Positions 3,139 to 6,227 of a stretch of 39,443 nucleotides of DNA are shown piece by piece (positions within the stretch are counted from its first letter, which is position 1; every line of letters begins with the position of its first letter). A model generated the notes under the pieces. It was not told where the DNA came from. It saw nothing but the letters and a program-made list of their open reading frames with translations, and made no database searches. The translations under genes and the position numbers were made by a program. The stretch covers positions 1 to 39,443 of the IMG/VR virus record IMGVR_UViG_3300016467_000324; one strand, 5' to 3'. The stretch comes from a virus. Its lineage: Duplodnaviria; Caudoviricetes.

Positions 3139-3210
3139 CTATCTGTTAAGGATATATGTAGTCACTTCAAATCCGAGTCTAATGTCATTATATTCTGGTT
3201 TAGTCCACAT
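3139..3210 (-). CDS. pqqA: pyrroloquinoline quinone precursor peptide PqqA (23 aa)
   Basis: Manual translation [24 protein letters not shown]-x-K-P leader, R-x-G-F-E-V-T-x-Y core (the E-x3-Y pair cross-linked into PQQ), NR end; AGGAG at 3217-3221. Too short for the ORF track. Confidence 0.93.
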
Positions 3211-3234
3211 GATTATCTCCTGTTTTTTGATTTA

Positions 3235-4245
3235 TTATATATTTACTAAATTTTTCTTAAATGTGTTAGTGCAATTTTCCCAAGTCCAATTATCAGAATC
3301 ATTTTCCACTTCATGTCTTGGCAGTTGAAGTGCAAAATCTATTTCATCAATATTAATTTCATTCACCAAATAACCTGATATACCCTGATTAATTATCTCT
3401 TCAGACACAGTTCCTTTATATGCAATAACGGGTGTTCCTGATGCCATTGCTTCCAATTGTGTCAGACCGAAGGTATCTGTTTTGGATGGGAAAACAAATA
3501 CATCCGCATTAGCATAACTTTCTGATAATTCTTTTCCCTTTCTCTTACCGGCGAATAATACAGCTTCAGTATGATATTTTTTCATCAATTCTTTTAAGTA
3601 TGGGCCATCTCCAATTAAAACTTTTAAATATCCTTCTGGAACAGGTATCTTACAAAAATCATCTAATCCTTTTTCCTTAGAAACCCTACTAACACATAGA
3701 ATTATCTTTAAATGTGATTGTTCTGGTCTGTTTCTATAACTTGAATTGAATGTATCTCTATCTACACCTCTTCTCCAGATAACAACATTCTTAAATCCCT
3801 TTGATTCTAATAGTGTTTTTACCATATTGGTGGGAACTAATACATTCTTAGATTTAGAATGAAACCATTTAAAGTATGGATATGTTATTCCTTCATTTAT
3901 CTTAAACATATTCTTGATAAACTCAGGGAACATGGAATGATAAGAAGTAGAGTAATTATATCCCTTCATATCACAGTATAATTTGCCAGCCAAACCAACT
4001 GGGCCTTCTGTTGCAATATGAATATAATCTGGACTAATATCTTTAATCATACCACCAATATTAATGATATTCAACGAAATATCAATCTCTTTGTAAAACG
4101 GTAGAGAAGTAGTTTTAAACCTTTCTGGACTGATTATACGAACATTAAATTCTTTTGATAGAATTTCTATAGTTTTACTGAGTGTTCTCACAACACCATT
4201 GGTTTGCTTTGGTGTTGTGTCTGTTATGATTAATAGTGTCTTCAT
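3235..4245 (-). CDS. GT4 glycosyltransferase, Agt-like (diacylglycerol glycosyl/glucuronosyl transferase)
   Basis: ITD..P.Q.NGVVRTL, HIATEGP.G, YH..FPE, W.RGVD, RV..EK and FVFPS.TDTFGL..LEAMASGTPV motifs; start moved to MKTLL. Confidence 0.85.
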   Translation of the reverse strand: MKTLLIITDTTPKQTNGVVRTLSKTIEILSKEFNVRIISPERFKTTSLPFYKEIDISLNIINIGGMIKDISPDYIHIATEGPVGLAGKLYCDMKGYNYSTSYHSMFPEFIKNMFKINEGITYPYFKWFHSKSKNVLVPTNMVKTLLESKGFKNVVIWRRGVDRDTFNSSYRNRPEQSHLKIILCVSRVSKEKGLDDFCKIPVPEGYLKVLIGDGPYLKELMKKYHTEAVLFAGKRKGKELSESYANADVFVFPSKTDTFGLTQLEAMASGTPVIAYKGTVSEEIINQGISGYLVNEINIDEIDFALQLPRHEVENDSDNWTWENCTNTFKKNLVNI

Positions 4246-4412
4246 TTTTTCAAGCAAACGTATAGTTCGCCTTCCTTGTGATCTTTTTTGGATTTCTCCA
4301 ATTGTGTCGATGCAACTCTGCAAGATTCCAGTGAATCAAATTCTCCTATAGGTTGCCAGAATAAACTGGTACCTAAAGCTGCTACTGCTTGTAATGCTAC
4401 TAAAATATACAT
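4242..4412 (-). CDS. small protein with hydrophobic N-terminus and two Cys (56 aa)
   Basis: Manual translation MYILVALQAVAALGTSLFWQPIGEFDSLESC...YVCLKK*; fills the gap exactly and overlaps the GT4 start (ATGA). Confidence 0.65.
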   Translation of the reverse strand: MYILVALQAVAALGTSLFWQPIGEFDSLESCRVASTQLEKSKKDHKEGELYVCLKK

Positions 4413-4413
4413 T

Positions 4414-5169
4414 TTAATCCTCTTTGAGTATTTCGTCCCAAGTTACTATTTCAAATCTCCCATCAAAATGTTCAACTAATGCGGTACAAGATTCTACCCA
4501 ATCCCCATCATTCATATAAACGATACCTTCAATTCTTTTAATTTCAGCATGATGTATGTGGCCACATATCACACCATCATAGTATTTTCTTCTGCAATAG
4601 TCAACGAGATTATTTTCAAAATTAAAGATGAAATCTACAGCACCTTTTACTTTATGTTTCAGAAACTTACTGAAAGACCAATAACCGAAACCAAACTTGT
4701 GTCGAAACCAATTGTATTTTGTATTGAGATACAATAGGATATCATATGCTTTGTCCCCGAGATATCCCAACCAAGGAGTGAGTTTTGAAATACCATCGAA
4801 CATATCTCCGTGAATTACTAAGTATCTTTCTCCATTTACTCCGATATGATCTATTTTATTAACAAAATCAATCTTTCCAAAAGATAGTTTATGTGATAAA
4901 AATGGTCTGAGAAACTCATCATGATTTCCTATAACATAAACAACTCGCGATTTCTTGGATTGTTTTATAATCTGTTGAACAACACTATTATGTGACTTTT
5001 TCCATTTCCATTTGTTTTGTTCAATTTTCCATCCATCTATAATGTCACCAACCAAATATAATGTATTTGCAGTATTATGTTTTAGAAAATCACACAACAA
5101 TTCCGCTTTACAATCTCTTGTTCCCAAATGAATATCTGAAATGAAAATTGAACGATATTTGTTAGACAT
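4414..5169 (-). CDS. plcP: metallophosphoesterase of the PlcP/LpxH2 group, probable intracellular phospholipase C
   Basis: YRSIFISDIHLG, LYLVGDIIDGW, GNHDE (His rather than the GNRD of canonical LpxH), HGD.FD, CGHIHHA, YMNDGDWVESCTALVE; linked to an Agt-like gene. Confidence 0.75.
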   Translation of the reverse strand: MSNKYRSIFISDIHLGTRDCKAELLCDFLKHNTANTLYLVGDIIDGWKIEQNKWKWKKSHNSVVQQIIKQSKKSRVVYVIGNHDEFLRPFLSHKLSFGKIDFVNKIDHIGVNGERYLVIHGDMFDGISKLTPWLGYLGDKAYDILLYLNTKYNWFRHKFGFGYWSFSKFLKHKVKGAVDFIFNFENNLVDYCRRKYYDGVICGHIHHAEIKRIEGIVYMNDGDWVESCTALVEHFDGRFEIVTWDEILKED

Positions 5170-5206
5170 TTTAACCTACAGTTGAAATATGTATATAGAT
5201 TTTTAA

Positions 5207-5225
5207 TGTTACATTTCTGTTACAA
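5207..5225 (-). promoter_or_regulatory. Pho-box-like direct repeat
   Basis: Minus strand TTGTAAC-AGAA-ATGTAAC-A: two TGTAACA units with 11-bp period, about 40 bp upstream of the plcP-like ATG. Confidence 0.55.
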
Positions 5226-5242
5226 TAGTCATAATATAGAAT

Positions 5243-5271
5243 AAAAAAAGGGGAACCGAAGTTCCCCTTTT
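5243..5271 (-). terminator. intrinsic terminator after pmoC
   Basis: GGGGAAC-TTCG-GTTCCCC hairpin (cUUCGg loop) followed by a T run. Confidence 0.92.
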
Positions 5272-5288
5272 GTTTCAGTTAGAAACTA

Positions 5289-6053
5289 TTACTTTGCATC
5301 AATTGCCGTCATCAGTTCCTTTCCAATCAGATTGGCAAAAGATGAGAAGACCTGTAGCAATACACCCGCAATAGCCAAAGCAAGCCACCCAAAGAACACA
5401 AAACCATAATGTAAAGGGGCAACGAATAGTTCCTCCATGAACCAGAAGGTGTGTCCCCATTCATTCAGGCCGACATTAGGCAGAATCATGAATGGACCAA
5501 CCACAGTCACCAGGTAAGGTAGGGATAGACCTTCTGCGAAATATGGCAGGCGAGTCTTTGCATACAAGAATGCACCAAATCCAGTGATAATGTAGATTGG
5601 GTATGACAGATAGAACTCAATGATATGACTTGGAGTGAAATCAGTATCTCTTACGATAGTCTGATGCCAAGTACCATCTTGTTCAGTAAAGTATGATGCA
5701 CCCCAATAGATTGCATTTGCATATGCAAACAACCATACAAGGTGTGTCATATTACGACGAAGTTCCTCTCTTGGAGTAATTGCGGCAAGGTTACGATCCC
5801 TTGTCTTCCAGATGGAACCCCATAGAATACTAGCAGTAGCGACTTCTAGGACAATTTCTGTATACAAGAAATTCATCCAATAAGTTTCAAATTCGGGTGC
5901 GAATGAGTCAAGACCTGCGGCCCAACCATATACACCTTCATACCAACGCACCCAGGTATAAAATACCATGTAGATGCCGAATGCAAAAGTCAACCACGCC
6001 TTATTGAGTAGTGGTGCTTCTGCCTTTACAACGTCATTTGTAATAGCTGACAT
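5289..6053 (-). CDS. pmoC: particulate methane monooxygenase subunit C
   Basis: AGLDSFAPEFETYWMN, EQDGTWHQTIVRDTDFTPSH (Asp/His/His metal site) and PNVGLNEWGHTFWFMEELFVAPLH (Asn/His/His site); EAPLL..WLTFA and FLYTEIVLE resemble Methylococcus-type PmoC. Confidence 0.97.
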   Translation of the reverse strand: MSAITNDVVKAEAPLLNKAWLTFAFGIYMVFYTWVRWYEGVYGWAAGLDSFAPEFETYWMNFLYTEIVLEVATASILWGSIWKTRDRNLAAITPREELRRNMTHLVWLFAYANAIYWGASYFTEQDGTWHQTIVRDTDFTPSHIIEFYLSYPIYIITGFGAFLYAKTRLPYFAEGLSLPYLVTVVGPFMILPNVGLNEWGHTFWFMEELFVAPLHYGFVFFGWLALAIAGVLLQVFSSFANLIGKELMTAIDAK

Positions 6054-6150
6054 AATTTACCTCTTAATATAACATCTTACGTTTAACGAAAATAGCATCC
6101 TTGCCGAGTTTGATGCGACAATCCGTCACACCCTCCAAATCATTCAAAAC

Positions 6151-6158
6151 TATTTATA
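6151..6158 (-). promoter_or_regulatory. T4-type late promoter for pmoC
   Basis: Exact TATAAATA on the minus strand. Confidence 0.7.
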
Positions 6159-6163
6159 CTAGG

Positions 6164-6192
6164 ATTATAATATTCTTGACTGTTTTTGTCAA
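6164..6192 (-). promoter_or_regulatory. consensus sigma70 promoter for pmoC
   Basis: Perfect TTGACA-17-TATAAT. Confidence 0.85.
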
Positions 6193-6202
6193 GATTTTTC
6201 TT

Positions 6203-6227
6203 AAAGAAAAGGGGACCGAAGTCCCCT
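6203..6227 (-). terminator. intrinsic terminator upstream of the pmoC promoter
   Basis: AGGGGAC-TTCG-GTCCCCT hairpin followed by TTTCTTT. Confidence 0.88.

Follow-up and report, generated by a model that had tools for sequence, protein, structure and literature searches.

A phage block with pmoC, plcP-agt and pqqA within 3.1 kb is probably a swap hotspot of separately switched host-support cassettes

We analysed a 3.1-kb block of the virus record IMGVR_UViG_3300016467_000324, whose full 39,443 bp make up the window studied here. The block carries pmoC, a gene for a PlcP-like metallophosphoesterase, a 56-amino-acid (aa) open reading frame (ORF), an agt-like glycosyltransferase gene and pqqA, all five intact and on the minus strand at the coordinates that an earlier note, made from the sequence alone, had given them (Table 1). 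That note had taken the genes for one coordinated island. Its gene identities, their intactness and their phage origin are borne out by profile matches, conserved motifs and flanking phage genes, but the single island is contradicted by a terminator, by separate promoter motifs, by independent gain and loss of modules and by the rarity of the full set among relatives. The arrangement is probably explained by a hotspot for gene swapping in a T4-like phage, with two host-support cassettes under separate switches: pmoC as a stand-alone unit, and a plcP-56-aa-agt unit, likely controlled by host PhoB, lodged between pmoC and a resident pqqA.

The layouts of related phages make this history readable. 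L001, whose PmoC and CobS are 96% and 88% identical to those of the window, has the order pmoC, terminator, pqqA, 106-aa gene, 67-aa gene, without plcP-agt, and the window is therefore most simply the L001 layout with plcP-56-aa-agt inserted. L002-L005 have the same backbone and pmoC only, while L081 and L346 carry plcP-56-aa-agt. L421 and L422 have the Pho-box-like repeat, plcP, the 56-aa ORF, agt and pqqA with no pmoC in front and a rimK-like gene ahead (seen in L421); L427 has agt-pqqA, and in L421, L422, L427 and L363 pqqA lies within ~160-230 nt after agt. We then counted modules in 80 viral pmoC loci (50 searched as whole records, 29 already whole and one lacking 321 bp). Pairwise co-occurrence held, with plcP in 22 and pqqA in 7. 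All three occurred in one (G010), where they lie at ~16, 66 and 85 kb, dispersed over 70 kb; this single case compares with ~1.9 expected under independence, a rough figure for redundant and fragmentary loci. In 13 of the 80 loci, plcP and pmoC were ~3 kb or less apart. Because 12 of these 13 belong to alpha-type pmoC phages whose PlcP forms a lineage of its own, the pmoC-plcP pairing appears to have arisen at least twice. Searches from the other side gave 354 viral plcP matches; among 50 of the 80 records kept from these, none had pmoC and 7 had pqqA, the sample excluding L083 and L085 (already counted as pmoC contigs) and 28 others, mostly short. The 158 agt loci contained plcP in 142, the pqqA motif in 7 and pmoC in none within flanks of 5-6 kb, and pmoC was present in 1 of 20 agt records.

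Signals between the genes point the same way. We read the block as at least two control units rather than one operon, since pmoC has promoter motifs and a terminator of its own, plcP is preceded by a Pho-box-like repeat, pqqA has a separate ribosome-binding site and is followed by another sigma70 motif. The sigma70-type motif of pmoC is kept in L001 and L002 and is accompanied by TATAAATA, which we take to be a T4-late-type promoter; ATAAATA stands upstream of most phage pmoC genes listed. The late-type motif fits the late pmoC expression inferred by Chen et al. (PMC7674155). The hairpin upstream of the pmoC promoters is nearly identical in sequence to the one after pmoC. We examined the repeat ahead of plcP with a period-11 repeat matrix trained on 38 host plcP/pstS upstream regions only, which recovered a Pho-box-type half-site. 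With this host-trained matrix the site at 5208-5225 ranked 2 of 78,852 positions, and 4 of 5000 shuffles reached its score. A score of at least 8 was reached ahead of 29 out of 76 plcP genes in phages, compared with 76 out of 1200 control ORFs and none of the 37 agt genes.

Table 1 Genes and predicted control elements of the block, in window coordinates
Feature	Position	Strand	Remarks
Perfect sigma70-type promoter motif after pqqA stop	3109..3138	-	Downstream edge of the block; would drive 106-aa and 67-aa genes
pqqA, PQQ precursor peptide	3139-3210	-	23 aa; PF08042 41.9 bits (cut-off 21.1); TIGR02107 42.9 (cut-off 20)
agt-like GT4 glycosyltransferase (predicted glycolipid synthase)	3235-4245	-	336 aa
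56-aa conserved phage ORF, no family	4242-4412	-	Hydrophobic N-terminus, two Cys
plcP-like metallophosphoesterase (predicted phospholipase C)	4414-5169	-	251 aa, Metallophos, calcineurin-like
Pho-box-like 11-bp direct repeat TTGTAAC-AGAA-ATGTAAC	5208..5225	-	~39 nt before plcP start
Intrinsic terminator-like hairpin between pmoC and plcP	5246..5271	-	11 pairs, UUCG loop, T-run on both strands
pmoC, gammaproteobacterial (Methylococcaceae) type	5289-6053	-	254 aa; PF04896 408 bits; TIGR03078 380 bits (cut-off 281)
T4-late-type promoter motif for pmoC (presumed)	6151..6158	-	Sole minus-strand copy in the window
Sigma70-type promoter motif for pmoC, perfect TTGACA-17-TATAAT	6164..6192	-	The window's minus strand has just two such perfect matches
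UUCG-loop terminator-like hairpin ending upstream 130-aa gene	6203..6227	-	Read from sequence; missing from terminator-scan listing

All five genes are under purifying selection, with pN far below pS and a dN/dS of 0.05-0.13 where synonymous sites are unsaturated. The PmoC protein is 89% identical to that of a Methylococcus sp. metagenome-assembled genome (MAG), 85-92% to those of other Methylococcaceae MAGs and ~74% to Methylobacter-type copies, which points to a Methylococcaceae host; the phage, probably T4-like, likely infects a Methylococcaceae methanotroph. Residues D126/H130/H143 and N197/H201/H215, which we take to be metal ligands, are intact. Each is identical in the solved chains 7ev9_C and 1yew_C of particulate methane monooxygenase (pMMO). 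The gene has a dN/dS of 0.05-0.06 against L001 and L002 and a third-position GC content (GC3) of 0.39, compared with 0.25 for plcP and 0.23 for agt, and no match to it was found in 50,697 GenBank phage records.

Several further features of phage pmoC loci came to light. The inverted repeat TCTTGAC-N7-GTCAAGA (window 6164-6194) overlaps the pmoC -35 box, is partly kept in L001 and L002 and could be an operator. Between promoter and start codon, ~80 nt before pmoC, the alpha-type pmoC loci (L033-L077) conserve a 5' leader whose ends, AAGAGTGG ... CCACTTGAT, are paired, and this leader may fold as a structured RNA. In related phages, split pmoC genes owe their interruption to Rfam group I introns (L014 10113-10332; L015 10606-10812 and 10906-11120; four in L022 1530-2561; L071 10605-10814), and similar-looking inserts in L035 and L065 fall below the Rfam gathering score. 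These introns may explain published 'fragmented' pmoC genes; our literature search found nothing on pmoC together with a group I intron.

The PlcP-like protein, encoded ahead of agt, is 51% identical to the P. aeruginosa homologue and 47% to that of S. meliloti, comparators taken as PlcP by homology and context rather than by locus tag; the benchmark for PlcP was a full-length identity of 45-50% to known members. Its D12, H14, D42, N82, H83, H120, H204 and H206 are invariant, and the motifs DxH, GDxxDG, GNHD, HGD and GHxH are all present; GNHD serves as a criterion for PlcP. Values of pN were 0.11-0.14 against a pS of 0.75-0.77. Databases label the family 'UDP-2,3-diacylglucosamine hydrolase'. 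We rejected an LpxH identity: LpxH models gave 42.1 bits against a cut-off of 134 and 32.5 against 190. No PDB sequence matched PlcP, no curated PlcP or Agt model was matched, and PlcP homologues occur in 5 of 50,697 GenBank phage records. plcP, the 56-aa ORF and agt abut or overlap. The 56-aa ORF is 69-82% identical in L081, L346 and L421-L424 and has a dN/dS of 0.06 against L081; its Atlas matches are viral hypotheticals at 0.83, a lead only. Unrelated ORFs of 43-56 aa occupy the same slot at other loci. For agt, the TTG at 4323 proposed by the ORF finder is an unlikely start, because homologues begin at the ATG overlapping the 56-aa stop, as chosen here. The Agt-like protein is 32% identical to the glycosyltransferase encoded after P. 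aeruginosa plcP, with a dN/dS of 0.12. In SAR11 GTcp the residues reported as essential are the His104/Asp256 dyad, Arg163, Trp320 and FPSxTDTFG (PMC8231724). The counterparts here, assigned by motif and position rather than by alignment to GTcp, are H103, R159, FPSKTDTFG (D257) and W320/322, and the motif SRVSKEKG keeps the R, V, E and K of GRVAxEKN with three positions changed.

Other phages with these genes have their own neighbours. A RimK-like ATP-grasp gene accompanies phage plcP-agt, lying between the two genes in L119, L122, L136 and L156 and upstream of plcP at L421 42-704 (L421 alone was scanned against Pfam). In Synechococcus phage S-SRM01 (L299 849-4711) a plcP homologue stands beside psbA, and in pelagiphage Mosig (L298 2900-4735) one stands beside a gene annotated as a phosphate ABC transporter. 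Both isolates are culturable, and their plcP homologues carry the LpxH-type label.

The pqqA gene has an AGGAG ribosome-binding site and starts 24 nt after agt. Its product keeps E15-x3-Y19 and is 87% identical to that of L001, with a dN/dS of 0.13 over only 23 codons. It diverges from host peptides at host-conserved positions, with Thr for Met inside E-x3-Y, and an exact search with a degenerate pqqA pattern matched the contig of L001 only. L363 carries two tandem identical pqqA peptides of methylotroph type directly after agt (7214-7416).

The genes differ in how they seem to have reached the phage. Compared with methanotroph PlcP, the window's protein shows 42-50% identity; the highest value across the 401 genomes sampled from the phylum is 58%, and identity to copies in other phages is 64-82%. 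The window's PlcP nests in a phage-only clade. The phage sequences in these trees were found with the window's own protein and thinned, with 80 of 110 PlcP rows and 33 of 44 GT4 rows in the first trees and 89 rows in a second PlcP tree (FastTree). We rejected recent capture of plcP from a methanotroph host on these identities and this placement. plcP appears to be a long-resident phage gene with phage-like GC3, and pmoC a closer copy of the host's. The hosts already hold these functions (plcP in 23 and pqqA in 24 of 25 methanotroph genomes), so the phage genes would supplement existing pathways. No pstS scored over threshold in the candidate-host MAGs G051, G052 and G054, which are incomplete.

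The block is an authentic part of a phage genome. It is flanked by genes for a CobS-like ATPase, an Rnl2 RNA ligase, homing endonucleases and a cell-wall hydrolase. As in known pmoC-phages, pmoC stands alone between phage genes, without pmoA or pmoB alongside, on a contig that CheckV estimates to be 21% complete. The virion genes that the earlier note had asked to confirm were found in a relative instead: the contig itself yielded none (57 ORFs against Pfam, 30 against PHROGs; gp23 search negative), while G003, a close backbone relative (CobS 87%; 81% DNA identity over 2.2 kb), has T4-type gp32, baseplate and tail genes. No tRNA or Rfam family was found in the window. A chimeric assembly at the borders, which the earlier note had raised, is ruled out because contigs from independent studies (P2 and P3, other than the window's likely source study) bridge every junction: X3 2899-3572 and X4 2980-3448 for pqqA-agt; X2 3192-4695, X3 3713-5224 and X4 3419-4530 for agt-56-aa-plcP; and X2 5026-5373 for plcP-pmoC. 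Depth over the region is ~6-14 in the likely source run. A joint in X2 that skips 1375-6206 rests on just 21 letters at one side and runs out in the shared terminator hairpin, so that it hints weakly, at best, at an empty site. Downstream of the block, window 1377-2559 (minus strand) holds a tandem pair of DUF6445 / 2OG-Fe(II) oxygenase-like genes of ~200 aa each, absent in L001-L005 and with weak homologues near pmoC in L077-L080. Beyond them, the N-terminal NAD-binding domain of an NAD-dependent DNA ligase, here a free-standing protein of 112 aa (989-1327, minus strand), is conserved at 81-85% and forms the downstream anchor of the hotspot.

Under the hotspot reading, each cassette would support the host in its own way. 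PmoC would top up or repair host pMMO late in infection. PqqA is consumed at one peptide per molecule of pyrroloquinoline quinone (PQQ), so a phage copy would sustain PQQ supply, keeping the host PqqB-E line provisioned for methanol dehydrogenases once host transcription falls. In a phosphate-short host, PhoB would bind the repeat at 5208-5225 and switch on plcP-agt, perhaps with pqqA by read-through. PlcP would then cut the head groups off phospholipids, and Agt would add glucose or glucuronate to the diacylglycerol left behind, giving MGDG or GADG and keeping the membrane sealed; host phosphatases would still be needed to release phosphate from the phospho-head groups, and the swap would free phosphorus for phage DNA. 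The genes would be adjacent mainly because the lineage gathers host-support genes at the hotspot. The Pho-box-like site lends support to the proposed phosphate mining; enzyme activity, PhoB binding, expression of phage plcP-agt and acceptance of the peptide by host PqqD/PqqE are predictions from sequence.

The block could also be the product of a single co-selected programme, in which pmoC, plcP-agt and pqqA are kept together to run pMMO-rich membranes while stripping them of phosphorus. Such a programme would account for the shared strand and short span, for the 13 loci with plcP close to pmoC, mostly in a separate PlcP lineage, for the recurrent placing of pqqA just after agt and for the full set in G010. 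It would also suit the phenotype of the Methylosinus OB3b plcP-agt mutant, whose internal membranes are disordered and which oxidises methane more slowly at low phosphate (PMC9239053). That phenotype makes a functional link between plcP-agt and methane oxidation plausible without any need for physical linkage. A terminator separates pmoC from plcP, the full set is no commoner than independence predicts and is dispersed in G010, and pmoC is nearly absent from the other plcP records, the agt records and the agt loci, counts that are rough and drawn from redundant fragments. We therefore consider a single programme unlikely. Distinctly unlikely, in our judgement, is that the lipid swap mainly alters the cell envelope, giving less superinfection, less grazing or a sturdier infected cell rather than phosphorus for DNA. 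In its favour, lipid remodelling reportedly changes phage adsorption (PMC9804370, citing unpublished data) and ingestion by ciliates (PMC9457565), and no PstS-type gene was found in the contig or in four related records, all but one of them fragments. Against this stand the Pho-box-like site, whose enrichment across phage plcP genes points to phosphate status as the trigger, and the phosphate-transporter neighbour of plcP in Mosig. We hold it highly improbable that the block is passive cargo, that its genes are wrongly assigned (and really encode a hydrolase of the LpxH type with a DNA- or surface-modifying GT4 enzyme), or that PqqA serves phosphate solubilisation through PQQ glucose dehydrogenase. 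The database label, the unmatched curated models and the departures of phage PqqA from host-conserved positions would favour this; it is largely refuted by the low LpxH scores and the GNHD motif shared with PlcP homologues, by the presence of the Agt residues that PMC8231724 names as essential and by the purifying selection on all five genes, and no membrane PQQ glucose dehydrogenase scored over cut-off in any of 5 candidate-host genomes.

The reading of a hotspot with a likely PhoB-controlled cassette has points against it as well. Of the 14 positions compared with the textbook consensus, 6 are mismatched in the Pho-box-like repeat, and by this crude count 980 positions are equal or better. 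The matrix is not fully specific, as 15 of 49 phage pmoC upstream regions also score at least 8, and the enrichment counts include related phages and so overstate independence. In L006-L008, whose PlcP is the nearest to the window's among pmoC phages, plcP lacks a box immediately ahead of it. The phage PlcP clade as a whole has a support of only 0.71, with 1.0 for an 11-member subclade (FastTree). Finally, the alpha-type pmoC-phage lineage has a different PlcP (~50% identical to the window's) within 3 kb of pmoC, a closeness that hints at some selection for proximity. A bolder chain can be built on the hotspot reading, and we regard it as doubtful: PhoB sensing would trigger a sugar-lipid rebuild of the pMMO-bearing membrane stacks and move membrane phosphorus into phage DNA, while the phage's PmoC and a Pho-box-driven pqqA keep methane-to-formaldehyde flow going; two lineages would have reached pmoC plus plcP independently, and lake phosphate would be a switch on viral control of methane oxidation.

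If the lipid swap operates as proposed, phage-run remodelling of phospholipid to glycolipid would be a route of viral phosphorus acquisition that we have not found described and that the LpxH label has masked. A 190-kb genome holds ~4e5 phosphorus atoms, and 50 virions ~2e7, the same order as the phospholipid count of E. coli; by this rough estimate the membrane pool would be large enough to matter for phage DNA. Next to pmoC and pqqA, phage plcP-agt would tie together the nutrient status of a lake, phage infection and the methane filter. Being small, the genes lend themselves to study in E. coli and in an available Methylosinus mutant.

Cyanophages carry psbA plus PhoB-controlled pstS/phoA. 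The block likewise combines an energy-metabolism gene with a phosphorus gene under a host phosphate regulator, as predicted here. Unlike in cyanophages, the phosphorus would come from membrane lipids rather than uptake, and no pstS was found on this fragment. The closest bacterial parallel is PlcP-Agt itself, which in Methylosinus OB3b makes the glycolipid GADG (PMC9239053). With this and other systems (P. aeruginosa PA3219-PA3218, PMC8528852; SAR11 GTcp, PMC8231724; Sebastian 2016, PMC4796936) the window shares plcP followed by agt and the catalytic motifs, and it has a candidate Pho box upstream as they do; it differs in being phage-encoded, in belonging to a phage-only clade, in the 56-aa ORF between the genes and in that its activity is predicted. 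We found no paper on phage plcP-agt in the literature searched, with subscription papers and bioRxiv supplements outside reach, and an amoC-phage preprint does not mention plcP, pqq or lipid.

pmoC-carrying freshwater phages are known, as the earlier note had said. Chen et al. 2020 (PMC7674155) describe them from freshwater lakes, with PmoC >90% identical to that of coexisting hosts, and the window resembles them in coming from what is probably a large T4-like phage with a stand-alone gamma-type pmoC in a variable neighbourhood. Their Table S7 lists PqqA in the pmoC-phages TP6_1 and LM_6. It also has metallophosphoesterase and GT4 families without names (fam0080, fam0108), among whose members PlcP and Agt may or may not be; the main text does not mention pqq, lipid, phosphate or glycosyltransferase. 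In T4-like methylotroph phages of Lake Baikal, pqqA has been read as supporting methanol oxidation (bioRxiv 10.1101/2020.04.02.019802). As far as the accessible preprint text goes, the Baikal phages concern a Methylophilaceae host and methanol dehydrogenase with no mention of pmoC, whereas the window has a methanotroph-type PqqA beside pmoC and plcP-agt. The earlier note's view that the combination was undescribed thus stands in part: pmoC-phages, phage pqqA and, in a supplementary table, pmoC with pqqA in one phage were already published. What the window adds is all three modules within 3.1 kb, with an insertion history that can be read from L001.

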